From a virus (taxonomy: Duplodnaviria > Caudoviricetes): a DNA stretch of 64,000 bases. The notes beneath the pieces are model-generated. The model searched no databases and was not told the DNA's origin. It saw only the letters and a program-made list of their open reading frames with translations. Location of the stretch: positions 2,429 to 66,428 of IMG/VR virus record IMGVR_UViG_2840851631_000003; one strand, written 5' to 3'. The translations under genes and the position numbers were made by a program. Below, in pieces: positions 4,462 through 51,343 of this stretch. Every line of letters starts with the position of its first letter. The stretch's first letter is position 1.

Positions 4462-4712
4462 CCCCCTCCCTTGGCTTTGGCCAGGACGGAGACGCCCGCC
4501 CAGATAGCCGCCAGCAGTCCGACCACGATGCCGCCGGCCAGCGCCTTCAGGATGGCGTCGCTGATCCCATCCACTCTCTTCGCCAGCCGGACAGCGTCGT
4601 CAACGCCAGCCTCGTCCAGCGCCTGGCGCGCGCCCTGCTTTGCCGCCGCTTCCAGCAGCTCCCGGAACTCCTCGCGCGGCAGCACAACTTCATCACCCAT
4701 TTCATTCTCCAA
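4458..4712 (-). CDS. Small single-TM lysis-region protein (possible holin/antiholin)
   Basis: 84 aa with a C-terminal TM, between endolysin and Rz. Confidence 0.6.
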   Translation of the reverse strand: MENEMGDEVVLPREEFRELLEAAAKQGARQALDEAGVDDAVRLAKRVDGISDAILKALAGGIVVGLLAAIWAGVSVLAKAKGGG

Positions 4713-5316
4713 AATAGGCCCGGTACTTCGGGCGCCGAACGATCATCACGTTGCGAACATGTGTGTTGGTGATATCGGCGAAGGACTGGCCGTAGCCGGT
4801 CTGCCGGCGCGCGGACTGCCCGCTGGTCCGCTCCAGCCCGCCGAACCAGCTGCCGGGGGCGCAGCCATCGGTGTTGGCGCAGCGCCGACGTCGCTGCAGC
4901 ACAGACCCAAGGCCGGAATTGTAGGCGGCATCCATCATCGCCAACCTGTCCTCGCCTTCGGCCCAGCGTATCAGCCGATAGTTGTCGCGGTTCTTCAGCA
5001 CCATCGCCGTCAGCTGGTAGCGCGGATCGAAAGCATTCTGCCAGCCCCATCCGCGCAGCTCCGGATGGCGGGCTGCCATTTCCCGGATCGCGTCGAAGCG
5101 CACGCTGCCGTCCGCCCGATACGCCTTGGTGAACTGGCCCAGCCCAGCGCCGTATTCGCGGGAGGTCTTCAGCACCGCCCGCTCGCGCCAGCCGCTTTCC
5201 TGCTCCACCTGCGCCGCCAGCACCGAGCGAGACGGCATGTCCGGCCAGTGCTGAGCCACCGCCACGCTCAGCAGCGGCAGCAGGGCCAGCGCGCCGGCGC
5301 TCAGCCCCGCAGCCAT
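4702..5316 (-). CDS. Endolysin, lytic transglycosylase (SLT-like), hydrophobic N-terminus
   Basis: AQVEQESGW catalytic Glu, GLGQF, AAYNSGLG. Confidence 0.85.
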   Translation of the reverse strand: MAAGLSAGALALLPLLSVAVAQHWPDMPSRSVLAAQVEQESGWRERAVLKTSREYGAGLGQFTKAYRADGSVRFDAIREMAARHPELRGWGWQNAFDPRYQLTAMVLKNRDNYRLIRWAEGEDRLAMMDAAYNSGLGSVLQRRRRCANTDGCAPGSWFGGLERTSGQSARRQTGYGQSFADITNTHVRNVMIVRRPKYRAYFGE

Positions 5317-11285: not shown

Positions 11286-11918
11286 CTATACGAGTACGGG
11301 GGAATTGGTGGGTAGCGATCCGGTGCCGATGTCCTCGACGCTGACGCCGGCGGAAATCACCGTGCCGCCTATCAGCATGGTGCCGGTGCCGATCGGAATC
11401 GGCAGGCCCTGTGCGCTGGTCTGCTGAGCGCCGTTGAACCAGTAGTTCGGCTTGCCGTCCTTGGCTTGCCAGTCGGGCTGCTTGGGGATTGGGGTTAGGA
11501 GCTCGATGGCGCCACCAATCATCAAACCCACGCCGACATTCATCATCACGCTGGCAGCGCCTTCGCTCAGAAACGCTGAAGTACCTAGCATTCCTATCCC
11601 GCCCCAGACTGAAAATGCCACCAGTGCTGCGCCTGCAAGAATGCGGGCTCCGGCTTTGGCGCCCACGATCACCGGCATGATGAGGATGTCGCCCTTGCTC
11701 ACCAGCACGATCTCATCTTCAGCGACATCCCGATCTGCCACCGTTACCCGATATCCGACCTTCTCCGGATCGCTCTCCCGTAAGTGCTGGATGAAGCCGG
11801 GCCAGTTAGCATCGAGCATCCGGATAGCCTCCGCCACGCTGTCGACGTAGGCGGCAAACTCCTTCACGAACTTCTCGCCCAGCTCACCGCCCAGGCGGAC
11901 GGTTCTTTTTTCACTCAT
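11286..11918 (-). CDS. Tail assembly protein I
   Basis: LGGELGEKF, SVAEAIRML, YWFNG...QGLPIPIGTG. Confidence 0.9.
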   Translation of the reverse strand: MSEKRTVRLGGELGEKFVKEFAAYVDSVAEAIRMLDANWPGFIQHLRESDPEKVGYRVTVADRDVAEDEIVLVSKGDILIMPVIVGAKAGARILAGAALVAFSVWGGIGMLGTSAFLSEGAASVMMNVGVGLMIGGAIELLTPIPKQPDWQAKDGKPNYWFNGAQQTSAQGLPIPIGTGTMLIGGTVISAGVSVEDIGTGSLPTNSPVLV

Positions 11919-26083: not shown

Positions 26084-26144
26084 AATGAAAAAGCCCCAGC
26101 GATTGCTGGGGCCAGGAAGCAGAAAACCCGCCATGTGGCGGGTT
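26084..26144 (-). terminator. Two tandem hairpins after the moron, upstream of the scaffold gene
   Basis: GCCCCAGC/GCTGGGGC and AACCCGCCA/TGGCGGGTT stems with A-tracts. Confidence 0.65.
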
Positions 26145-27847: not shown

Positions 27848-29223
27848 TACATCGCCCCCAGCGGCGGCTGGCCGGCGCGGCGCTCCAGCTCATCCGCCCA
27901 GGTCAGCGACTCGGAAATCAACCCGCGGCGCTTGGCCTCGCTGAACATGGTTTCCGGAGACAGGCCCATCTTGACCAGCACGTCCATTGACGCGGACGGG
28001 TCGAAGTCGGCGTCGATGTTGCCACTAATTTCCACCTCGCCGCCATTGTCGCCCAGGCCCATCCACATGGCGGTGTAGTCGAGCGCCTTGGCTATCGAGT
28101 CCTCCAGCGCGTTGGCCATGGCTCGCAGCTGGCTGATCTCCTTCAGCGACTCGCCGCGTGCCTGGCTGTCGGTCATCGCCAGCACCGAGCGGGTGAGCAA
28201 CTTGGCGCCGGCAACCTTCATCTGCTCCTCAAGGTCCGCCAACGACTCCTTGCCGGCGACGATGGCCGCGCCGGTATGCTCGACGTACTTCATGTCGCCG
28301 TTCAGCGGCAGGTCGATCAGGCTCTTTCCGATCTGCATGTCGTCGCGCTTGCGGCCCTCATGGTCGTACTGCGGCTCCGCGCCAATGCGCGCCAGGATCG
28401 GAACGCGCGCCGTGTGCAGGATCGTGTCTTGGTCGGACTGCGACTGCCAGTGCTTGACGTTCAGATGCGCCAGCTCCAGCAGCGGCGGCTTGCCGGTCAG
28501 AAAGCCTGTGCGCTTGGTGTACAGCGGGATCAGCGGGATATCCTTCAGCGGCCCGCTGCCGGCGGTCATCTCGAACTCATCGCATAATGACCAGTCAGCG
28601 CCAGCCTCTCGATACAGCCGGCAGCGTCCAGGTTCCAGAACCACGATCTGCTTGATGACCTTTACCCCGAACTCGCCGTCCGGTTCCTCGATCTGCTCGA
28701 GGTAGCGAAACTGGACAAGTCGCTCGCTGCCTCCGGATTTATCCGTCTTCCAGCCCAGCACGGACTTGGGCGAGATGTGGCACCAGTACGGACGCGCGCC
28801 GGCTGCCTTCTCGTCCGCCATCGTGCGGGCGCCCTCGACTCGAGGGTAGTTGACCAGCAAGTAGGACACGCCGCGCTGCAGCGCCTCGCCGAACCAGGCG
28901 GCGGCGAACACGTCGAGGCTGCGGCCTTCGCGATCCACATTCAGCAGTACCTCATCCTCGATCCGCTGCGGCACGTCCTTGCGACTGATCTGGTCCCCGA
29001 AAACGCGGCCAATCATCTGCTCCACCGTCTCCGACAGCGCCGGGTAGAGCGTGGCGGTTTTCAGGCGCGCGTCGTACTCCTGCCGGTCCTCCAGCGGCCA
29101 GCGCGGCATGAACATCTCGCCCGCGGCACGCATGGCTTTAGTGCCGCCCATCAGCGCGTCGATGATCGGCCAGTCCTCGGCCATGGCTTTGATGGCCGGC
29201 GATTGAGTGCTGACGTCTGACAT
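27847..29223 (-). CDS. Portal protein (DUF4055)
   Basis: 458 aa after TerL; PPLLELAHLNVKHWQSQSD. Confidence 0.88.
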   Translation of the reverse strand: MSDVSTQSPAIKAMAEDWPIIDALMGGTKAMRAAGEMFMPRWPLEDRQEYDARLKTATLYPALSETVEQMIGRVFGDQISRKDVPQRIEDEVLLNVDREGRSLDVFAAAWFGEALQRGVSYLLVNYPRVEGARTMADEKAAGARPYWCHISPKSVLGWKTDKSGGSERLVQFRYLEQIEEPDGEFGVKVIKQIVVLEPGRCRLYREAGADWSLCDEFEMTAGSGPLKDIPLIPLYTKRTGFLTGKPPLLELAHLNVKHWQSQSDQDTILHTARVPILARIGAEPQYDHEGRKRDDMQIGKSLIDLPLNGDMKYVEHTGAAIVAGKESLADLEEQMKVAGAKLLTRSVLAMTDSQARGESLKEISQLRAMANALEDSIAKALDYTAMWMGLGDNGGEVEISGNIDADFDPSASMDVLVKMGLSPETMFSEAKRRGLISESLTWADELERRAGQPPLGAM

Positions 29224-29265: not shown

Positions 29266-30540
29266 CTACATGTTGAGTTTGGATTGGGTGGCAGTGCGCT
29301 TAGCGATCGGCCACAGCCTGACGATGGGATAAGTCCCGGCGTCGTTCACGTGGTCGACACCGCTCTTCTTGTCCGGCTCGCCGTTGGCGTCATACGCCTG
29401 CTGCTCTAGCCCCTCGGTAAATTTCGGACAGCGGCGAGTATTGACCTTCAGGCGCCGCTCGCCGTTCGCATTCAGCAGCATGGCGTTCGTCGACAACACG
29501 CGGTCTTTCACGGCAGGGTTGGCGGATCCGACGCTGATGGTGAAGCCGGCCTGGCGCAGGATCGACAGATCCGACTCGCTGGCGCTCTTGCTGCTCGTGT
29601 TCTGGCCGCTGGCGTCAGGGTAGACGGTGATCGCGTGGCCGGTTCGTTTCCAGCGCTCGCTGATCATGCGCGCCATTTCCGGCGTGTCCCGCACATCCAC
29701 CAGCTCATCCACGGCAATTGGGTTCCCGTCGCGGATCACATAGATCACCGCCGCCATCCTCAGCACGTTGAAGTCCATGCCGACGTGCAGCGGCTCATAA
29801 GGCTGCATCTCGGCGTCGGAATGGTTCAGCTTGCGGTCGAAGCACGGGTAGACGCTGCCACTGGCGAGGTTGCAGAACTGCCCTTTCAGGTAGGCGTCAA
29901 TCAGCTGCGGCGGGTAGGTCAGGAACAGCGAATCGATGTAGTCGTCCGGCAGGTTCGCCTCGTTGTCGTAGGTCGATGCCTGGATCAGTCCGTAGAGCGC
30001 GGCCAACTCTGGCTTGGCGGCAACCTGCTTCACGAACTGCTCGTAGACGAACTTGAAGCCCTCCGGCGTCGTGGTTACATCCACGCCGTTCTTGAGGTTG
30101 TCCACCTTGTAGCGCATCCGGGCGATGATCTTGCGCCAGGCCGCGCGCGCCTTCTCCGCCTTCATCACGTCCAGCTCATCGCAGAGCGCCTTGCCGATCT
30201 TGAAGCCGACGATAGTCTCGGGCTTCTCCATCGACCTGCAGATGGTCGTGCCGCGGTACTTGCGGCCCTCGTAGACGTGGACTTCCTTGTTCGACTCGTT
30301 GATTTTGACCTTCAAGCCCCAATCGAAAGCCACCTTCTCCACGGTCGGGTAGAAGATGTCACGGATCTGGGCGTAGGTCGGGGCGAAGTACCCGGCGTTG
30401 ATCAGCGGGTACTGCCAGAAATGCTGCATCAGGCCGCCGCAGCCTACCCAGGTCTTGCCGGAGCCGAAGCCTGCGACATAGGCACGGAACTTGTGATCCA
30501 TCGCCAGAAACTGCGATTGCGGGACATTAAGGCTTGGCAT
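29266..30540 (-). CDS. Terminase large subunit
   Basis: AGFGSGKT Walker A, LCDELD Walker B, GMDFN and DHVNDA nuclease motifs. Confidence 0.95.
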   Translation of the reverse strand: MPSLNVPQSQFLAMDHKFRAYVAGFGSGKTWVGCGGLMQHFWQYPLINAGYFAPTYAQIRDIFYPTVEKVAFDWGLKVKINESNKEVHVYEGRKYRGTTICRSMEKPETIVGFKIGKALCDELDVMKAEKARAAWRKIIARMRYKVDNLKNGVDVTTTPEGFKFVYEQFVKQVAAKPELAALYGLIQASTYDNEANLPDDYIDSLFLTYPPQLIDAYLKGQFCNLASGSVYPCFDRKLNHSDAEMQPYEPLHVGMDFNVLRMAAVIYVIRDGNPIAVDELVDVRDTPEMARMISERWKRTGHAITVYPDASGQNTSSKSASESDLSILRQAGFTISVGSANPAVKDRVLSTNAMLLNANGERRLKVNTRRCPKFTEGLEQQAYDANGEPDKKSGVDHVNDAGTYPIVRLWPIAKRTATQSKLNM

Positions 30541-39498: not shown

Positions 39499-40010
39499 CA
39501 CTCCCCTCCCTTGATCTCGTGCGCCCGGCCGCCAGCGCCCGGCACCTTGTACGCGCTCAACTTGCACTGCCCGTTCTCGCCCGGCTTGTAGACCACTAGC
39601 ACGGCTGGGAACGGAGCCTTCGCCTTCGCCCCATCGAACCGCAGCCGCTTGTCCAGCGCGCGGATCTCCGCGGCTTTCAGCGCGTGGCGGTGGAACCAGC
39701 GGGTGTCTGTCCGCGCCGGCACCAGGCAGACCACCAGCGCGCCGTCGATGCTGGAGCGGTAGGCCTTGGCCATCCACAGCTTGATCTGGTGGCCGAACGG
39801 CGGGTTCATCCAGACGACGTCCTGGCTCCAGTCCTGGGCCAGGCCATCCTGCTCGCGCGTGAAGAACCGTTCGCACTTTGCGTTCTCCGCCGTCGCGCAG
39901 ACGTCCAACGTGAAACCGAATTCCTCGTGCAGCTGGTCGAACAGCGCCTGCGGCGTCGGCCACTCGTCCGTCTTGCTGCTGAAGTGGACCTGCTCGCTCA
40001 GATCCGCCAT
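39498..40010 (-). CDS. Phage N6-adenine DNA methyltransferase (Dam-like)
   Basis: DEWPTPQ, FTLDVCA, WMNPPFG, LVPARTDTRWF. Confidence 0.9.
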   Translation of the reverse strand: MADLSEQVHFSSKTDEWPTPQALFDQLHEEFGFTLDVCATAENAKCERFFTREQDGLAQDWSQDVVWMNPPFGHQIKLWMAKAYRSSIDGALVVCLVPARTDTRWFHRHALKAAEIRALDKRLRFDGAKAKAPFPAVLVVYKPGENGQCKLSAYKVPGAGGRAHEIKGGE

Positions 40011-40574: not shown

Positions 40575-40961
40575 ATGGGAATCGATGTTTTTGATATACG
40601 GCGTGCGAATCTTGCGCGGCTTTTGGAGCCGAGGGGATCTGCTGCGCGCATAGCCGAAAAGGTGGGCTCCTCAGCCTCCTACCTCTCTACGCTGAAGACT
40701 CTGGACAAGAAGAATCCCAATTCGCGCCGGATGGGGGACGATATGGCGCGGCGGATTGAAGAGGCGGAAGGCCTGGAATACGGCTGGATGGACAGGAGCC
40801 ACGATACTGAACAAGCGCCGGCGCCGGTGCCAGAGCAGGTCGTGATTACCGCTCAGTCTGAAGATGAGCTCGTGAAGCTCCTGCGCGAAAAGGGCGAAGC
40901 CTACGCGTTCGAACTGCTCCGCAAGGCCTTCATGGAGCAGGAAAACAAAAAGGGCGACTGA
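40575..40961 (+). CDS. CI-like HTH repressor lacking the S24 autopeptidase domain
   Basis: IRRANLARLL..AARIAEKVG...MARRIEEAEGLEYGWMD; only 128 aa; divergent from CII across OR. Confidence 0.8.
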   Translation: MGIDVFDIRRANLARLLEPRGSAARIAEKVGSSASYLSTLKTLDKKNPNSRRMGDDMARRIEEAEGLEYGWMDRSHDTEQAPAPVPEQVVITAQSEDELVKLLREKGEAYAFELLRKAFMEQENKKGD

Positions 40962-40996
40962 TGTCGCCCTGCTCTACTGTCGCCCTACACTACTCC

Positions 40997-41194
40997 TTAG
41001 GCCGCAAATCTGGCCTGTGTCAAATCTAAACTACTCACATCCCCAAACCGCACGAACTCCAGCGTCCCGTCCTTGTAACGCCTGAGCGCCACTTCAGCGA
41101 CAACCGGCCCGCGCGCGTCGAAACCAGCTCTGTGGTGATGACAGTTTGCCGCATGCACGCATGGCGCATGAGCGATATTGCAATTGCTCTGCAT
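40997..41194 (-). CDS. 65-aa small ORF, candidate antirepressor
   Basis: GGAG/AGGA RBS before the ATG; convergent with cI; lies downstream of the lux-box-like palindrome. Confidence 0.55.
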   Translation of the reverse strand: MQSNCNIAHAPCVHAANCHHHRAGFDARGPVVAEVALRRYKDGTLEFVRFGDVSSLDLTQARFAA

Positions 41195-41279
41195 TCCTAA
41201 CTCCGTTTCAGGTGCTCAATCATAGCCGTCTGTCATATGTCACTACTGACATCTTCTTGTTTTGTGGCCACATTGTCCC

Positions 41280-41297
41280 ACCTGACATCTGTCAGGT
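41280..41297. promoter_or_regulatory. Lux-box-like inverted repeat
   Basis: ACCTGACA-TC-TGTCAGGT; ACCTG/CAGGT ends as in lux/las boxes, 18 bp like the tra box. Confidence 0.6.
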
Positions 41298-41373
41298 CAT
41301 TACGAGAAATAGTAAGAAAATTTGTACACAGTAAAAATACGTATTCTTCAACACGTGATTTAAAGTTCATGCG

Positions 41374-42126
41374 CTATTCGCATGCCCCGATCTTGTACAT
41401 GAGCTGCTCAACGGTAGCCGCTTCATACGTCTCCATAAGCCGCCCAACATGGTAATCAATGGTAAAGACGCTCTTGCCAAGGGCGGCTGCCACCTCGAAC
41501 CGTTTAAAGCCTTTCTTACAATACAGTTCGATTACAGACTGTTGAATCTTGCTTGTTTTCGCAATCCGAGCGTTTGAAGCAAAAACCCTATGCGCGACCT
41601 CAGCCAGGTCGGGGAGCAGCATTTCGAGCAGATCGCGCAGCGCGCGGTCGTCTTCCACCTGGCGGCCAATCATAGACAGCACGTATCGAACGCCGGCGCC
41701 TTTGTCCGCGATATACGTCAGGCCGTGCGTCAGCCCGTGATGCTCGCAGTCCACGACGAACTTGCGTTGAGCCGGCGTCAGGCCCGGCGCATACAGCCGC
41801 TCGGACCAAACAACCGGCGCGCCGGCGAGCCCTCTTACCACGGGGTCAACTTTCACGTACCCGTGCTCTACATATCGCTGCAACCAATCCTCAGACCAGC
41901 CGTGGTTGATGTACAGCGATGGCACCTTGGTGCCGTAGAATGTCGCCAGCAGCGTCGGCGCCCCGCCAGCGATCGTGCAGATCAGCGCCAGGGCCGCATC
42001 AAGGTCATCACGCGTCCTGGCGCGCACCAACATACTGCGCAGCGCTGCAGCGGCGCAGATCGCCGCATTGATTCTGTTGTTGGAAATTGCCGCCACTTCC
42101 GGCAGCTGATCGATAGCTGTCGCCAT
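41374..42126 (-). CDS. LuxR-family regulator with AHL autoinducer-binding domain (LuxR solo)
   Basis: W81-xxx-Y85...D94-P95...W107...G135 match the spacing of the TraR AHL-pocket residues; C-terminal LuxR-type HTH. Confidence 0.85.
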   Translation of the reverse strand: MATAIDQLPEVAAISNNRINAAICAAAALRSMLVRARTRDDLDAALALICTIAGGAPTLLATFYGTKVPSLYINHGWSEDWLQRYVEHGYVKVDPVVRGLAGAPVVWSERLYAPGLTPAQRKFVVDCEHHGLTHGLTYIADKGAGVRYVLSMIGRQVEDDRALRDLLEMLLPDLAEVAHRVFASNARIAKTSKIQQSVIELYCKKGFKRFEVAAALGKSVFTIDYHVGRLMETYEAATVEQLMYKIGACE

Positions 42127-42189
42127 GAGTCCCCCTGTCTATTCAAGGTAGGACATTTTCACGACGCAGAAAACCGCGCCGCCGATTTC

Positions 42190-42525
42190 TCAGCGTGCGG
42201 TGGTCAGCAGCAGCTGAACAAGTCGCCAGACCTCATCCGGCCCTTTGCTCAGCATCTGCTCAGCTACATCCTCCAGCGAGTCCGCAGAGACGTAAGGGGC
42301 CTCCGTGTTCGCCAGCGGCGTCTTGCGCCCCTTCCCCGTCTCCAGCCACGTCAGCGACACCCCCAGCGCCCGCGCGATGCTCGGCAACTTCGTGGACTCG
42401 CGATTGCGGCCATTCTCCAGGTCGGCGACTATCGACCGACTACAGCCGGCCCGTCGGCCAAGATCTTCCTGCCGCCAGCCGCGGCGCCGGCGCTCGGCCC
42501 TGATTCGATCACCTCTTACATTCAT
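42190..42525 (-). CDS. XRE-family HTH regulator
   Basis: GDRIRAERRRRGWRQEDLGRRAG.SRS.VADLENGR...IARALGVSLTWLETGKG. Confidence 0.9.
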   Translation of the reverse strand: MNVRGDRIRAERRRRGWRQEDLGRRAGCSRSIVADLENGRNRESTKLPSIARALGVSLTWLETGKGRKTPLANTEAPYVSADSLEDVAEQMLSKGPDEVWRLVQLLLTTAR

Positions 42526-42559
42526 GCCGCATTGTCGATTACGGCAGGGATGTCATGGC

Positions 42560-42587
42560 ATCATACAAAGATGGTATTACGTCACAA
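42560..42587 (-). promoter_or_regulatory. Putative promoter of the XRE-luxR operon
   Basis: Minus strand TTGTGA-N16-TATGAT, just downstream of a terminator at ~42596-42620. Confidence 0.45.
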
Positions 42588-42796
42588 TCGGACGCAAAAA
42601 AAGCCCGCGTGTGCGGGCTGGTCTGCGGGCGCCAGGTGTTTTTATCTGAACGGGTGGGCTCAGCCTAGCGCTTGGGGTGAGTCTGCCGGTAGTGGCCGGC
42701 GTGGTCAAGGCGAAGAAGTAATGGCGAGAATGGGGTGGGGAGAGGCGGGTGGGGGGGGCTGCTGTACTTTAAATACTAATCAAGACAAAATACTAA

Positions 42797-44788: not shown

Positions 44789-45060
44789 CTAACAGCCTGC
44801 ATCACCTAGCCGATACGACAGCAGCCAGCCGGCGGGCAGGTTCTTGGCGCATAGGAAATGCTGGTAGTTGCACGCCTTCCCGTTCAACGCCTGCCAGTCT
44901 GTTGTAACAAGTTTCTCGTTTATAACATATGCCAGCCACGGCGCAGACGTTCCTGCCCTACCAGTTGTGTACGCTGTCAGCCCTTGAGGTAACCGAGGAG
45001 ATGAAGTAGAGCCGCTGATTCTTAGAGTCACCGTTCAGGCGGACCAGAATGGCGTCCCGG
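44789..45060 (-). pseudogene. Frameshifted remnant paralogous to the 46315-46893 gene
   Basis: INEKLVTTDWQALNGK..QHFLC versus INQKLTTSDWVALNGK..QHFLC; the upstream FISS motif is in another frame. Confidence 0.7.
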
Positions 45061-45220
45061 GCCGTGCCGTGTGCCGCGCCGCTGATCGTCTTCAGCGCCT
45101 CCTCTTTCTTCGTCATCGAATCGGCGCACGGCGGACGACACCAGGGCAAGGCCGCAAGACCAGCTTCCACAAGAAAATCCAGTATCGAAATCATCAACCT
45201 CATCCAGCATCAGCATTAGG

Positions 45221-45361
45221 TCCATCAGCCCCACCATTGCGGGGAACATGCGTCCGGTAGGAATCGGACATGTATCTGCCGTGGTTCATCCCCACGCATG
45301 TGGGGAACAAGCTGCTGCGTCAGGCCCCGGCCGGTTCATCACCACCCAAGTGGTGGAGCAG
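45221..45361 (-). CRISPR. Orphan type I-E-like CRISPR mini-array (3 repeats, 2 spacers), no cas genes
   Basis: Repeat 45282-45310 (minus strand TTGTTCCCCACATGCGTGGGGATGAACCA); degenerate repeats at 45221-45249 (61-nt period, 32-nt spacer) and ~45332-45361 (21-nt spacer). Confidence 0.75.
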
Positions 45362-45381
45362 AGACTGGATTTCGACGTCAA

Positions 45382-45576
45382 CTAGATGGACACATACCGC
45401 CAGGTCTTGAGCCCCATCTTGAGCGCGGCGGACTTGGCGGATTCCTTGTTGCCCCATAGCGGGGTTGCACTCAGGTCCAAAGAATCGGCCAGTGTGTGGC
45501 CGGCCTCGGGCTTGTCACGCTGGTACACATACCACTTCACCTTGTCACCTGTTGTTGCCAGTACGTAAGTAGCCAA
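45382..45576 (-). CDS. 64-aa hypothetical protein upstream of the mini-array
   Basis: TTG start with an AAGGA RBS; ends ~20 nt before the first repeat. Confidence 0.6.
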   Translation of the reverse strand: MATYVLATTGDKVKWYVYQRDKPEAGHTLADSLDLSATPLWGNKESAKSAALKMGLKTWRYVSI

Positions 45577-46314: not shown

Positions 46315-46893
46315 TCAGTTCGCCGGCAGCTCGTAAACGTTGATCGCCTTCAACGCCTCCGGGTTCACCGACTCGATCTTCCCAGTGTTGTAGTCGACGA
46401 TCACCGGATGCTTTGCTGGATCGCAAGGCCCGACTTCTATCCCGCCGGACTGTGCGGTCGATGAGTGAACGATCCCCGGAACTTTAAAAATGGAGCCGGT
46501 GCTCTTGGTCGCCTGGCCAATATCGCCTGCGATTTGCCAACCCGCAACGCCAGAAGGCATGTTTCTGATGCATAAGAAGTGCTGGAAGTACCTTACCTTT
46601 CCGTTCAGGGCAACCCAATCGCTAGTGGTCAGCTTCTGGTTAATGGTAAAGGCCTTGCCTTGTACTGACTGTCCAGCCCCACTCGCAGATGAAATGACGA
46701 ATTGCTGTCCTACCTTGAGACAACCGAGCCGGTGATCCATCCAAAGGTCATCGACAGTCTTCGATTCGCACTTGAGCGGGCCATCGTAGGTAGGAACCGC
46801 GGAGACCGCAAATGCAGCCCGCGCCGCTATGGCAAACACTGTGATTACTACTCCATACTTCAGCATTGCTTCACTCCAGCTTCTTTTTTTCAT
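46315..46893 (-). CDS. Exported hypothetical protein
   Basis: Signal-like N-terminus and four Cys. Confidence 0.75.
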   Translation of the reverse strand: MKKRSWSEAMLKYGVVITVFAIAARAAFAVSAVPTYDGPLKCESKTVDDLWMDHRLGCLKVGQQFVISSASGAGQSVQGKAFTINQKLTTSDWVALNGKVRYFQHFLCIRNMPSGVAGWQIAGDIGQATKSTGSIFKVPGIVHSSTAQSGGIEVGPCDPAKHPVIVDYNTGKIESVNPEALKAINVYELPAN

Positions 46894-47561: not shown

Positions 47562-47619
47562 TTGTGCAACATTTCGCTGAGAGTTAAAGTTTGTTCAACA
47601 CGCAGCGAAACTTTCGCAC
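47562..47619 (+). promoter_or_regulatory. pL promoter with operator (OL)
   Basis: TTGTGC-N17-TAAAGT; AGAGTTAAAGTTT (47580-47592) is the exact reverse complement of 40478-40490; TTTCGCAC at 47612. Confidence 0.7.
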
Positions 47620-47998
47620 CGATCTCTAACAACCAGCAGCGATACGGCACAGCCCAGGGCGCGCAGCACGGCACCCCCTGTCAGGTCTCAGACCTGAGGA
47701 AGCGATGGCCAAGTCATGCAGAAGCACCTGCATGCCGCGCAAGAGGTTCGCAAGGAGCGGACCAATGACAGCGCAAGCGCCCACCCCACCGTGGCGAGTA
47801 ACGGGGGAGTGAAGTAGAAGGCCGCTTCTCACGAGGCGGCACACTGGATCGGCGGCGTTGAAGGAAACGCGGGATAGCACCATAGACACTTTCCTGTAGC
47901 CGGTATCAAGCCCGGCCCGATCCAGTGTGAGCAGCAAACAGGCAATGCGGCGGGCCTGACCAAATCGCTGATTCGACTGGCCCGGTCGTTGAATGGGC

Positions 47999-48095
47999 AC
48001 CTACACGTATGGCGGTTTCGCTTGGTGGGAGTGCGCATAAGGATTGCGCGGATAGTCTCACAAGAAGCCAGGCTCAAGCCGCCAGCCGTGTAGGT
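47999..48095 (+). ncRNA. Candidate structured RNA in the pL leader
   Basis: ACCTACACG/CGTGTAGGT outer stem with nested TGGCGG/CCGCCA. Confidence 0.35.
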
Positions 48096-48314
48096 CAACG
48101 CCAGGAGAAGCATGGATATATTTTTGCTCTGGCTTTGGATTCTGATTGGTTGGCGCCCGCGAGAACGATTCTCCTCGCACGGCACGGAAGTCAGATCCAC
48201 TACGGCAGCAATATCGCCGCCGCCTCAGATGACCTGCGCGAAGGGCGTGCAGTAGCCATCGACAACCTGAGAAACGGGCCGCTTCGGCGGCCGAAACAAC
48301 TGAAAGGACATCGC

Positions 48315-48494
48315 ATGAGCGAGCAGGTATTCAAGAAGGGCCAGTCGGTCAGCTTCACCACCATCCATGGCCGTGAAGGCAAAGGCAAGATCGTCGACAT
48401 CACCAAGGGTGCCAAGGGCGACTTCATCAAGGTGCAGGAAGACGGCAGCGACAAGGTGACTTCCTGCCGCCCGAAGCAGCTGAAGGCCGCCTAA
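48315..48494 (+). CDS. 59-aa SH3/KOW-like basic protein, first pL gene
   Basis: AAGGA RBS; FKKGQSVSF..GKGKIVDI. Confidence 0.65.
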   Translation: MSEQVFKKGQSVSFTTIHGREGKGKIVDITKGAKGDFIKVQEDGSDKVTSCRPKQLKAA

Positions 48495-48515
48495 GCCGCC
48501 GCCGGCGAACGCCGG

Positions 48516-48610
48516 CTGCATTGCTGAACGCCTTGTGCGAGCAAGTGTAGCGCTGGCCGCGCTTACCGGGCGCCACCCGGGCAGGAGCCGCAAGACGTTC
48601 AGCAATGCAG
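48516..48610 (+). ncRNA. Candidate multibranch structured RNA
   Basis: Perfect 15-bp stem CTGCATTGCTGAACG/CGTTCAGCAATGCAG enclosing two small hairpins. Confidence 0.45.
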
Positions 48611-48919
48611 TGAGTAGACCCCTGTACTGCGCCGGGGCCGCGAAAGCGGGACAACTTCCGGTTGCGCACCCCAACCGATATGCGCAGATGGGTGGGCCAC
48701 AGATCACCGTTGGCCCCTGCAACAGCGCCGGCAGCCTTCGCGGGTAGTCTGATGCCGGTAGGACCGCTGATTTCAGCGGTGGGGCCGAGGGCCACGCCCT
48801 CCCCGGCTGGATGATGGATCATGCCAGTCGCCCCACCCCTGCGATTCGCTCGTAACAATAACAAACATTAAATTTCAACTGAAATTAAGTGCATTTAAAA
48901 GAGTATGACCTCCTCCCAA

Positions 48920-49774
48920 CTAACCGAGCGGTCTAAGTTGGAGATTTCCGGCTTCAAGATGGGCTAGCCGAAACTCGCTGGGAGTCCGGTCGCCCAGCGA
49001 ACTGTGCGGCCTGAATTCGTTGTAATCCTGCCGCCAACGCTCGACCTTTTCGCGTGCGTCGTCCAGCGATAGAAACCAATGCACATTCAGGCACTCATCG
49101 CGCAGACTGCCGTTAAATGACTCGATAAAGGCATTATCCGTGGGTTTTCCTGGTCGTGAGAAGTCCAGTGTGACGCCTTGCTCATAGGCCCACTGGTCCA
49201 GTGCCAGGGAAATAAACTCGCTGCCGTTGTCGACCTGAATCCGTTGCGGCGTCCCGCGCAAGGCTTGCACATGCTGCATCGTAGCAACCACGTCCGCGGC
49301 TTTCAGCGCGAAATCCACCGTGATCGCCAAGCTCTCCCGGCTAAAATTATCCACCACAGTTAAGGCCCGGATTTTCTGGCCGTTGAACAGCTGATCGGCG
49401 ACGAAATCCATGCTCCAGCACGCATTCAAATTGGAGACGGCCGGCCGAGCGTGGCGATGCGCCGCTGCCACTCGCCGTTTGGGCCGCTTGCGCCGCAGAT
49501 TCAAGCCTTCCTCGCAATAGATCCGGTAGGTCTTCTTGTGATTGATCCGCCAGCCTTCGCGCCGCAGTAGGACGTGGATGCGGCGCGCGCCATAACGAAT
49601 GCGGGTGGCGGCGATCTCGCGGATTCGCTGCCGCTCCGCACGATCGTCTCGAGGGTGAGGGCGGTAAAAATAGGTAGCTTGCCGCAGCTGAATGACCGCG
49701 GTGGCGCGACGGATGCTGACGCGGTACGCGTCGATCAGGAAGTTGGCCAACTCGCGTTTGCGGGCCGGCCTCAC
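48920..49774 (-). CDS. IS3 transposase OrfB (DDE integrase core)
   Basis: WSMDF, QVDNGSEF, GKPTDNAFIESFNGSLRDE. Confidence 0.95.
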   Translation of the reverse strand: MRPARKRELANFLIDAYRVSIRRATAVIQLRQATYFYRPHPRDDRAERQRIREIAATRIRYGARRIHVLLRREGWRINHKKTYRIYCEEGLNLRRKRPKRRVAAAHRHARPAVSNLNACWSMDFVADQLFNGQKIRALTVVDNFSRESLAITVDFALKAADVVATMQHVQALRGTPQRIQVDNGSEFISLALDQWAYEQGVTLDFSRPGKPTDNAFIESFNGSLRDECLNVHWFLSLDDAREKVERWRQDYNEFRPHSSLGDRTPSEFRLAHLEAGNLQLRPLG

Positions 49775-50037
49775 AGCTTTTTTTGGATGACTTCCTGCAG
49801 CATCTGCTTGTCCAGGCTCAGGTCGGCGACCATGCGCTTGAGACGGGCGTTCTCTTCTTCCAGTTGTTTCAGGCGGCGCAACTCGCTGACGCCCAGGCCG
49901 CCGTATTTCTTCTTCCAGTTGTAGAAGGTGGCTTCGGAGACGCCCATCTTGCGGCAGACCTCGGCGACGGTGGTGCCGGACTCCGCCTGGCGCAAGGCGA
50001 AGGCAATCTGTTCTTCGGTGAACTTCGATTTTTTCAT
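49771..50037 (-). CDS. IS3 transposase OrfA (HTH)
   Basis: MKKSKFTEEQI, ELRRLKQLEEENARLK. Confidence 0.95.
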   Translation of the reverse strand: MKKSKFTEEQIAFALRQAESGTTVAEVCRKMGVSEATFYNWKKKYGGLGVSELRRLKQLEEENARLKRMVADLSLDKQMLQEVIQKKL

Positions 50038-50248
50038 GACAAACCTCCTGCCCGGATGGGCTTAAATTTGCCAGAAATCTCTACTTTTCGTCGCTACGTT
50101 TTTGCGGGAGGAGGTCAAGTACATGCTTAATTTTCGCAGAGTCAAAATCATTCCAATCAACACCAAGCGTGTTGTCATTTATTTGAATAATAGAATCAAA
50201 TGCTAGGATAAAACTCCAACCTCTTACTTAGGAATTGGAGAAACTAAA

Positions 50249-51277
50249 ATGATGTCCTTATTCAATCCAGCCAAAACCGCCGGATCACTAGGAATGGCGT
50301 CAAGCAACACTATTACCGACACAACAATGTGGACAAAGTCTGCAAAAAACACAACAGCGACCACAGTAACAAACGCATCGAAAACTTCCACCACAAGTGT
50401 GAATGAAGCGGACTACATTTTAGCGTACGTGACTCCAGCCGATTACGGCCATGGCTCCGTTCCAAACAATTCAGTCCGCCCAATATCTCAAGCTCTTGAT
50501 TCATTACTAAGCAGTGGGTCAAATTTCTTTGTCGCCGGCCATATGCTCAACCATCATTTAGGTGGTAGCGGCAAAAAGCAAGACAACATCACAGCCTTCA
50601 CAAAAAGCGACAACTCAAAACACAACGACATGGAAGAGTTAGCAAAGAATGAGGTAAAGGCAAACGGAAACAATATTCTTTACGAGACAGCCGTCACGGA
50701 ACGTGCTGATATAAACATGTCCAATGGCGCAAGCATTAAAAATCTTGCAAGCCACCTTGAAGTCACATTCTGGATTGTTGATAACAACGGAGATCAAGTC
50801 AGCGGAACCTCAGCACAAACGGATGATTTCGACATAAACATAAAAGGAGCTGGAAAACCATGGGTCGCGCATAAGACTAATGGAACCGCAACACTTGCGA
50901 AATCGACTCCAACTGGCGCTCCAATTTTGAAAAACATATCCAAAAAAAGGCACTTCCCAGGATTCTACTCGGAACTAATACGCTCAATTTGTAATACACA
51001 TGGTTTAGATGAGGGGGAAGTTTCAAACGCCATGGATGATGCAGGCGTGACAACTCAATCGCAATCTGGCGGGGGTGAATCATGGACGAGCTACGCAAAT
51101 TATAAAATTGAAATGAATAAGCATAATCTTAGCGACCCCAAGTATGGGAAGCTTGTCACCACCGCATTTATTGCTCTTGAGAATACCGCCACTCACTATA
51201 ACGCCGGTACAGGCGGAATAAATGCATCAAACGTTGTTGACGACGCCAGACAGCTTATCAAAGCTTGGTTCAAATAA
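50249..51277 (+). CDS. His-Me DNA/RNA non-specific endonuclease-domain protein (moron)
   Basis: AGHMLNHHLGGSG...NI.AFT...N; AT-rich; terminator at ~51308-51332. Confidence 0.7.
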   Translation: MMSLFNPAKTAGSLGMASSNTITDTTMWTKSAKNTTATTVTNASKTSTTSVNEADYILAYVTPADYGHGSVPNNSVRPISQALDSLLSSGSNFFVAGHMLNHHLGGSGKKQDNITAFTKSDNSKHNDMEELAKNEVKANGNNILYETAVTERADINMSNGASIKNLASHLEVTFWIVDNNGDQVSGTSAQTDDFDINIKGAGKPWVAHKTNGTATLAKSTPTGAPILKNISKKRHFPGFYSELIRSICNTHGLDEGEVSNAMDDAGVTTQSQSGGGESWTSYANYKIEMNKHNLSDPKYGKLVTTAFIALENTATHYNAGTGGINASNVVDDARQLIKAWFK

Positions 51278-51343
51278 AACAATCGATCATTAACAGAAAT
51301 GATTCTGCCCGGCCTCGCGCCGGGTTTCTTTTTGGAGTTCGCC

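Follow-up and report, generated by a model that had tools for sequence, protein, structure and literature searches.

What does a prophage gain, if anything, from carrying a short row of CRISPR repeats? The question is raised by a locus in the window, the 64,000-nucleotide stretch of DNA analysed here, which comes from an IMG/VR provirus record (66 kb; CheckV completeness 85%). The original prediction had taken the locus for a Cas-less type I-E mini-array inside the prophage that acts as an RNA anti-CRISPR, as a regulator that hijacks host Cas proteins, or as a guide against competing elements. On the minus strand of 45221–45360 we found three type I-E repeat units separated by spacers of 21 nt (R3–R2 period 50 nt) and 32 nt (R2–S1–R1 period 61 nt), reproducing the predicted coordinates and spacing. 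Read along the minus strand, the locus has the following parts:

45382–45576, minus strand: conserved small ORF of 64 aa, immediately 5′ of the array and its probable co-transcribed partner
45361–45381, minus strand: gap of 21 nt between the stop codon of the 64-aa gene and the first repeat, with no promoter-like or terminator-like site
45332–45360, minus strand: R3, the degenerate leader-side repeat (psi-R), its 5′ part diverged and its AUGAACCG handle intact
45311–45331, minus strand: 21-nt spacer-like segment (psi-S), conserved together with R3 across variants of the module
45282–45310, minus strand: R2, a near-canonical I-E repeat (27/29) whose final base is A, not G
45250–45281, minus strand: S1, a 32-nt spacer related to the 3′ half of the tRNA-Arg(CCU) gene
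45221–45249, minus strand: R1, the terminal repeat, its hairpin retained with one G-U pair and its 3′ handle degenerated
45175–45220, minus strand: trailer of about 45 nt, which accompanies the array in variants A, C and E

R2 has the features by which a type I-E repeat is recognized, namely a length of 29 nt, a 6-bp G+C-rich stem (CCCCAC/GUGGGG), a 4-nt loop and a 3′ AUGAACCG handle. The usual I-E spacing, a 61-nt period and spacers of 32–33 nt, is shown by R2–S1–R1 and not by R3–R2. Its 26-nt core occurs once in the window and in none of 100 dinucleotide-preserving shuffles, and it is letter for letter the repeat of one of the three I-E arrays in Chromobacterium piscinae DSM 23278 as well as the array repeat of C. 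violaceum I-E systems; over the 29-nt host repeat, positions 1 and 29 differ and no others. R1, with the stem CCCCGC/GUGGGG and its one G-U pair, looks like a typical terminal repeat in that the hairpin is present and the 3′ handle is gone. R3 departs from the host repeat by 8 substitutions; the 5′ flank has four of these, the loop has two, and the others make up a compensating stem pair (C7A/G20U). Its 6-bp stem is preserved as CACCAC/GUGGUG. The ATGAACC handle (AUGAACC in the RNA) is present in R2 and R3 and lost in R1. Both this count and the retention of the stem in all three repeats, in R3 by way of a compensatory change, agree with the original prediction, and the repeats appear to retain the features that Cas6e processing requires (the stems, and the handle in R2 and R3). 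Also as predicted, the array is co-oriented with the 64-aa gene and just 3′ of it; what lies upstream is a protein gene, not an A+T-rich leader like that of L050. Rfam assigned no CRISPR repeat family at either gathering or relaxed thresholds. The idea that R3 is the repeat of another CRISPR system was rejected, as the IMG/VR copies of R3-type repeats occur only in this prophage family, apart from one chance match in a coding region.

None of cas6e, cas7e and cas1 was found in the 66-kb provirus record, and the description of the array as Cas-less therefore stands. Proteins in the neighbourhood carry the source name Chromobacterium violaceum, and an identical copy of the region is present in assembly GCA_002081735.1. 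In its genes the provirus is lambdoid (SSB, AAA_24, a CP76-type regulator, Dam, NinB and YbcO); the slot that holds the array is adjoined by an XRE repressor and a LuxR-type protein, and the array lies in the immunity region. When the 3-kb neighbourhood was compared with plasmid and phage records by megablast, no match was returned. The flanks (roughly window 47616–48849 and 40728–42715) are common to related prophages and the genes between them differ: beyond the 64-aa gene, the cargo consists of a GHKL ATPase and a STAS-like protein in the window, and of HipA_2 with DUF3037, BstA, a ParA-like ATPase, or RelA_SpoT with NA37 in other prophages. Because shared flanks enclose differing cargo, we place the array inside the prophage, within a variable accessory slot. 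Between the window and the related prophage L060, the block of gene plus array is kept while the cargo differs on both sides of it. Two further features of the slot were observed. On the minus strand of window 44789–45203, directly 3′ of the array trailer, lies a frameshifted paralogue fragment of the 192-aa gene at 46315–46893 (42% identity, 69 residues). Window 48850–51307, which is missing from L008 and L009, carries an IS3-family transposase (rve) gene, identifying it as an insertion sequence within the cargo slot.

A decoy for Cascade presupposes hosts with type I-E systems. Cas6e is encoded by 11 of the 20 Chromobacterium species representatives, and several assemblies that bear the name C. 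violaceum have the complete operon (cas3-cse1-cse2-cas7-cas5-cas6e-cas1-cas2), flanked by arrays. G020, recognized as the C. violaceum species representative from its 97% identity to a flank from that species, has no Cas6e, and the C. violaceum strain ATCC 12472 has a type I-F system (PMC4913304); with full I-E operons in some strains and none in the representative, I-E is strain-variable in the species. The expectation of host I-E cas genes with matching repeats thus held for the genus and for strains of C. violaceum, where the repeats are identical, and failed for the species representative, which has I-F and no I-E. A single complete C. violaceum genome, CP069587.1, combines a full I-E operon and its 53 repeats (L057) with the related prophage L060, which carries an identical mini-array (state A below), so that an I-E system is indeed found in the host of a related prophage. 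The spacers of CP069587.1 gave no close match to its own prophage.

Among 482 spacers from the retrieved I-E arrays, at least 13 match the provirus at ≤5 mismatches, 10 of them with an AAG PAM, and the arrays of C. violaceum and C. phragmitis are among their sources; these matches fix the PAM as AAG. Spacers from two C. violaceum strains target window 4694–4725, 11797–11828 and 26094–26125, and C. phragmitis spacers target 28862–28893, 30158–30189 and 39733–39764, in each case with 1–2 mismatches and an AAG PAM. A protospacer at window 42338–42369 also has 1–2 mismatches to a C. violaceum/C. phragmitis array spacer, with CGG as its PAM. The phage family is under recurrent I-E attack, which provides a reason for an anti-CRISPR device to exist.

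Related prophages show what is variable in the array and what is not. We scored the repeat states 3′ of the 64-aa gene across these relatives and distinguished six, in which the number of repeats is three, two, one solitary, five, or none:

State A: R3, 21 nt, R2, S1, R1 (the window, L012, L013, L025, L027, L028, L059 and L060)
State B: R3, 21 nt, R2 (L009 and L029)
State C: R3, 21 nt, terminal repeat (L026)
State D: R3 alone (L008 and L031)
State E: R3, three 32-nt spacers including an S1 variant, and, fused to the 64-aa gene at its 5′ end, an extra near-perfect repeat (L011)
State F: no repeat (L010, L030, L032 and the C. haemolyticum copies L054–L056)

R3 and the first nucleotides after it occur in all repeat-bearing states, variants A to D all have R3 plus the 21-nt segment, and this degenerate repeat with its 21-nt guide is the most conserved unit. 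The window and L009 agree at 19/21 positions of the 21-nt segment, which can still be recognized in L008, where no second repeat follows it. Since it is shared across states, L008 included, we regard it as a stable and conserved part of the module, and its reading as a freshly acquired spacer has to be given up. R3 plus psi-S is no better conserved across variants than the DNA on either side, so that common descent could account for its conservation. At about the array trailer, the homology shared by the window, L011, L026 and L060 comes to an end. Within the trailer itself (window 45175–45215, minus strand), the variants differ mainly at the third codon positions of one frame (LDEVDD), a hint of past or present coding sequence.

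The 64-aa protein is 95% identical to its L008 copy at 87% DNA identity, indicating that the gene is under purifying selection. Its family is limited to Chromobacterium prophages (five clusters among 5.8 billion proteins), and the gene always lies directly before the variable cargo. The protein had no match in Pfam, PHROGs, PDB (sequence search) or the ESM Atlas and was found in none of 185,579 species-representative genomes; its AlphaFold model is unreliable (pLDDT only 58.5). The original prediction had made it a candidate anti-CRISPR protein or toxin, which fared poorly: only its position favours this, as it resembles no known protein and the gene is found just as frequently in prophages that lack the repeats as in those that have them.

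How the array may have come into the phage is suggested by L011. There, a near-perfect I-E repeat (L011:1954–1982) is fused to a 5′-truncated 64-aa gene (1983–2135), exactly at an AAG-flanked position. The intact 64-aa gene has AAG and then the sequence retained in L011, and a fusion at AAG is the junction expected from recombination of a host spacer with a phage protospacer. A C. phragmitis spacer differs at a single position from its match in the 64-aa gene of L008 and L031. In the CP069587.1 prophage (L060:5510–5535), AGA stands in place of this AAG and position 6 of the putative protospacer differs as well, which looks like the pattern of a CRISPR (PAM) escape mutant. The final repeat base, A in R2, varies with the spacer in host arrays too, so that the R2–S1 unit appears to be the product of real I-E adaptation. 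Taken together, the L011 junction, the AGA change in L060 and the host spacer against the 64-aa gene make spacer–protospacer recombination the likeliest route by which the array would have been captured from host arrays. We conclude that the element is real and is derived from the I-E arrays of the host genus and kept in a lysogeny-side cargo slot.

A genuine I-E fragment, repeats that appear competent for Cas6e, cognate I-E systems in the species and genus, and a phage that these systems target together make “the prophage borrows or jams host Cascade” the right frame, and we infer that this part of the original prediction was sound. Within that frame we tentatively favour an RNA anti-CRISPR of the Racr/Cracr kind, to which we assign a probability of about 40%. 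The array would probably be transcribed together with the 64-aa gene, and in an I-E-positive host Cas6e would cut at the three hairpins. In the first, conserved unit, a 21-nt guide lies between a degenerate repeat that still has its handle and a canonical hairpin; this unit would load Cas5e, Cas7e and Cas6e into short, useless or re-aimed complexes, and these would compete with the host crRNAs directed against this phage family. RNA anti-CRISPRs (Racr) act in this way, as do the viral crRNA-like regulators (Cracr). The second unit, with its 32-nt tRNA-Arg-like spacer, would be an ordinary crRNA unit that adds to the decoy load or is left over.

The fit of R3 to such a role can be stated in numbers. 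With its 8 substitutions, R3 keeps 6/6 stem pairs and 8/8 handle bases (P about 6e-4); when eight random substitutions were placed on the 29-nt repeat in 400,000 simulated trials, full retention was seen in 0.064%. Over 16 distinct repeat copies from the module and the hosts, 93/96 stem cells (96.9%) are paired, a level that no shuffled or slid control reached. Canonical copies have CG at pair 7–20, where the five R3 forms all have AU or GU; as the R3 forms share ancestry, the double change arose a single time, perhaps before the phage captured the array. All three hairpins are present in the minimum-energy fold of the transcript, and the folding stability of the whole stretch is not above that of shuffles (z = −0.42). 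We found no promoter-like or terminator-like site between the 64-aa gene and the array, which makes their co-transcription plausible. What counts against an RNA anti-CRISPR is that the module is patchy, being absent in L010, L030, L032 and all C. haemolyticum copies, that the R3 substitution pattern could have arisen before capture, and that R3 plus psi-S is conserved no better than its flanks. The lack of I-E in the C. violaceum species representative and the failure to find a promoter target for the 21-nt guide (below) weigh on the same side.

Comparison with known RNA anti-CRISPRs gives a mixed picture. In the CracrIE array of a Salmonella enterica prophage, psi-S is 24 nt long, and matches to the guides lie in host CreR elements and in the casA promoter (Liu et al., bioRxiv 10.1101/2024.10.29.618823). 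The array described here is likewise prophage-borne, cas-less and of type I-E, has two to three repeat-like units, and carries a shortened guide (21 nt, against 24 nt in CracrIE) that follows a repeat whose 8-nt handle is intact. Unlike CracrIE, it has yielded neither a promoter target nor a similar host CreR guide, and its second unit is a canonical 32-nt crRNA unit. Racr elements are solitary repeat units that act as RNA anti-CRISPRs and include RacrIE1/2 and the acrIC5-racrIC1 operon (Camara-Wilpert et al. 2023, PMC10651486). These, too, are resembled by our array, which is a phage mimic of the repeat of the host subtype lying a few nucleotides behind a small ORF, as in an acr-racr operon, and which takes solitary form in the sister prophages L008 and L031. 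It differs in having, in the window, three repeats and spacers instead of a solitary unit, and in that its upstream 64-aa ORF has no Acr homology, unlike that of acrIC5-racrIC1. Moreover, the action of RacrIF1 depends on lacking the 5′ handle (PMC10651486), whereas R3 and R2 provide one.

Host elements of similar build came to light in the genus itself. We found a CreR-like two-repeat element in the cas3–cas8e spacer of four Chromobacterium I-E loci, those of G016, G004, G017 and G019; the coordinates of the four elements are L038:15423–15512, L043:9927–10005 (in G004), L042:6623–6712 (minus strand) and L044:6815–6904. They have a degenerate first repeat with an intact handle, a near-canonical second repeat and a shared terminator, and each of the four has an AAG-flanked partial guide match about 70–100 nt upstream; the guide is 32 nt in three loci and exactly 21 nt in G004. 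By these features they fit the description of the CreR autoregulator, and the literature that we searched contained no earlier report of CreR-like autoregulators in Chromobacterium. The first prophage unit shows the same architecture, with a degenerate psi-R, a short psi-S, a second psi-R and an intact 5′ handle. In contrast, the host elements lie inside cas loci and possess the shared terminator and the AAG-flanked upstream target, none of which the prophage unit has. The likeness of R3 to psi-R1 of L043 is confined to the 5′ part, and the 21-nt guide is unlike all four host CreR guides found.

The 21-nt segment occurs nowhere else in IMG/VR, and as a guide it had no promoter target in 16 I-E loci or 20 genomes; the proposed regulator of CreA type thus loses ground, with no host promoter target found for either spacer. 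In the form carried by L009, the guide has an AAG plus an 11-nt seed match inside the cas8e reading frame of four species (G016, G004, G017 and G019); it is mismatched there at 6 and 12, positions that Cascade leaves unread. The chance probability of this match is roughly 0.01–0.03 after multiple testing, near chance level, and the window's own form has a seed mismatch to the site at position 5. We treat the putative cas8e site as a lead only. Separately, a 17/21 match to the guide 2 kb upstream of cas3 in G013 was judged to be chance.

The same observations can be read as decay, which we find doubtful. The array would then be a relic, made of host-array pieces that entered by spacer–protospacer recombination and are now drifting, being lost and doing nothing for the phage. 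Stepwise loss is what the allelic series resembles (three repeats, two, one, none), and S1 has diverged between the window and L011 (3/32 positions) about as much as the flanking DNA. Also, no target was found for any prophage spacer, the fusion of repeat and 64-aa gene in L011 sits at an AAG-flanked position, host spacers against the 64-aa gene exist, and the frameshifted paralogue fragment beside the array gives the slot the appearance of a recombination scrapyard. Decay is opposed by the non-random substitutions in R3 (P = 6e-4), by stem pairing kept in nearly all copies, and by a block of gene plus array that is kept amid differing cargo in the window and L060.

A use for S1 is implied if the R2–S1–R1 crRNA arms host Cascade and Cas3 against competing mobile elements, a hijacked guide that we consider unlikely. 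The unit has the right form, in that the repeat is canonical, the spacer has its full 32 nt and the terminal hairpin is unbroken; R2 ends in a base that varies with the spacer, as in true acquisitions, and L011 contains two further 32-nt spacers. S1 is clearly related to the 3′ half of the tRNA-Arg(CCU) gene, so its targets could be elements with this att core. The tRNA match (25–27/32) was seen in four genomes, G006, G010, G013 and G014, and on three viral contigs from metagenomes, where it lies at the contig ends. The anticodon loop supplies AAG as the PAM and the next 11 nt are a perfect seed for S1, except in G014 (mismatch at position 9), with 26–27/32 to one isoform. The isoform of C. 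violaceum, C. piscinae and C. phragmitis reaches 24/32, with seed mismatches at positions 1 and 7. Different elements follow the tRNA in different species (in G014 an integrase fragment adjoining the I-E locus, in G006 and G013 HTH repressor genes, in G010 an SpvC-like gene), which marks tRNA-Arg(CCU) as an integration hot spot. In G014, where the I-E cas locus adjoins the tRNA-Arg(CCU) gene and an integrase arm-domain fragment (L045:13558–13632 / L066), the whole CRISPR locus may lie on an integrated island.

Against a guide in use, no S1 protospacer with ≤3 mismatches was found in 20 genus genomes, no match in IMG/VR or metagenomes, whether exact or with the five unread positions free, and none in 50,697 phage records (INPHARED). 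For the 21-nt guide and the two extra L011 spacers alike, no target turned up in the 20 Chromobacterium genomes, in IMG/VR, in a metagenome scan or in INPHARED, and a search of the window for targets of S1, the 21-nt guide and the extra L011 spacers returned none. The same method readily recovered host spacers against this phage and recovered nothing for the four prophage-borne spacers, none of which is shared with the 482 host-array spacers. A 19/32 match of S1 upstream of cas3 in a C. violaceum-type locus was judged to be chance. S1 is missing from variants B, C and D and has lost the T-arm pairing, which gives it the look of a spacer that was acquired from an att-bearing or tRNA-bearing element and has since drifted. 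The anti-competitor guide that had been proposed is therefore not borne out, as its spacers have no protospacer in phages and the locus has no plasmid match; with neither a protospacer nor a promoter target found, both the anti-competitor and the regulator readings are left without their key evidence. Viral CRISPR mini-arrays for inter-virus competition are represented by those of Saccharolobus SPV1/SPV2, the spacers of which match related viruses (Faure et al. 2019; PMC11656645). Our array shares with these the absence of cas genes, the one or two spacers and the host-identical repeats, and it differs in that none of the four prophage-borne spacers has a match.

The two functions might also be combined, which strikes us as quite improbable. 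In such a dual-purpose array, S1 would guide Cascade to the foreign tRNA-Arg(CCU) att core while the first unit blunts immunity against kin, and the C. violaceum tRNA-Arg(CCU) itself would be spared through the seed mismatches at positions 1 and 7. If this were true, the prophage could destroy rival islands or phages at the hot spot, or block their integration. Finally, chance similarity, or the remnant of a host chromosomal array outside the prophage, has nothing in its favour beyond the small size of the array and is refuted by the shuffles, by a repeat identical to those of hosts and by phage DNA on both flanks that is conserved in related prophages, leaving it practically no probability.

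Returning to the RNA anti-CRISPR that we favour, the locus is an example of a counter-defence class described in 2023–2026 (PMC10651486; bioRxiv 10.1101/2024.10.29.618823; PMC11656645), not a new principle. Its interest lies in being an unusually well-documented natural case, in which a phage family carries the repeats of the very I-E systems that target it heavily, and one genome contains both partners. The sister prophages amount to a natural deletion series, with three units, two, one solitary repeat and none, and thus allow a direct test of which parts of a CRISPR mimic matter, one that can separate decoys (Racr) from re-aimed regulators (Cracr). The repeat–gene fusion of L011 at a PAM-flanked site is a rare footprint of the pick-up of array pieces by a phage.

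Solitary exact copies of the same I-E repeat were also seen in unrelated metagenomic viral contigs (L002/L005, L006/L007 and L003), and in L006/L007 the solitary repeat lies just 5′ of sequence encoding a tyrosine-recombinase motif (HDLRHT).
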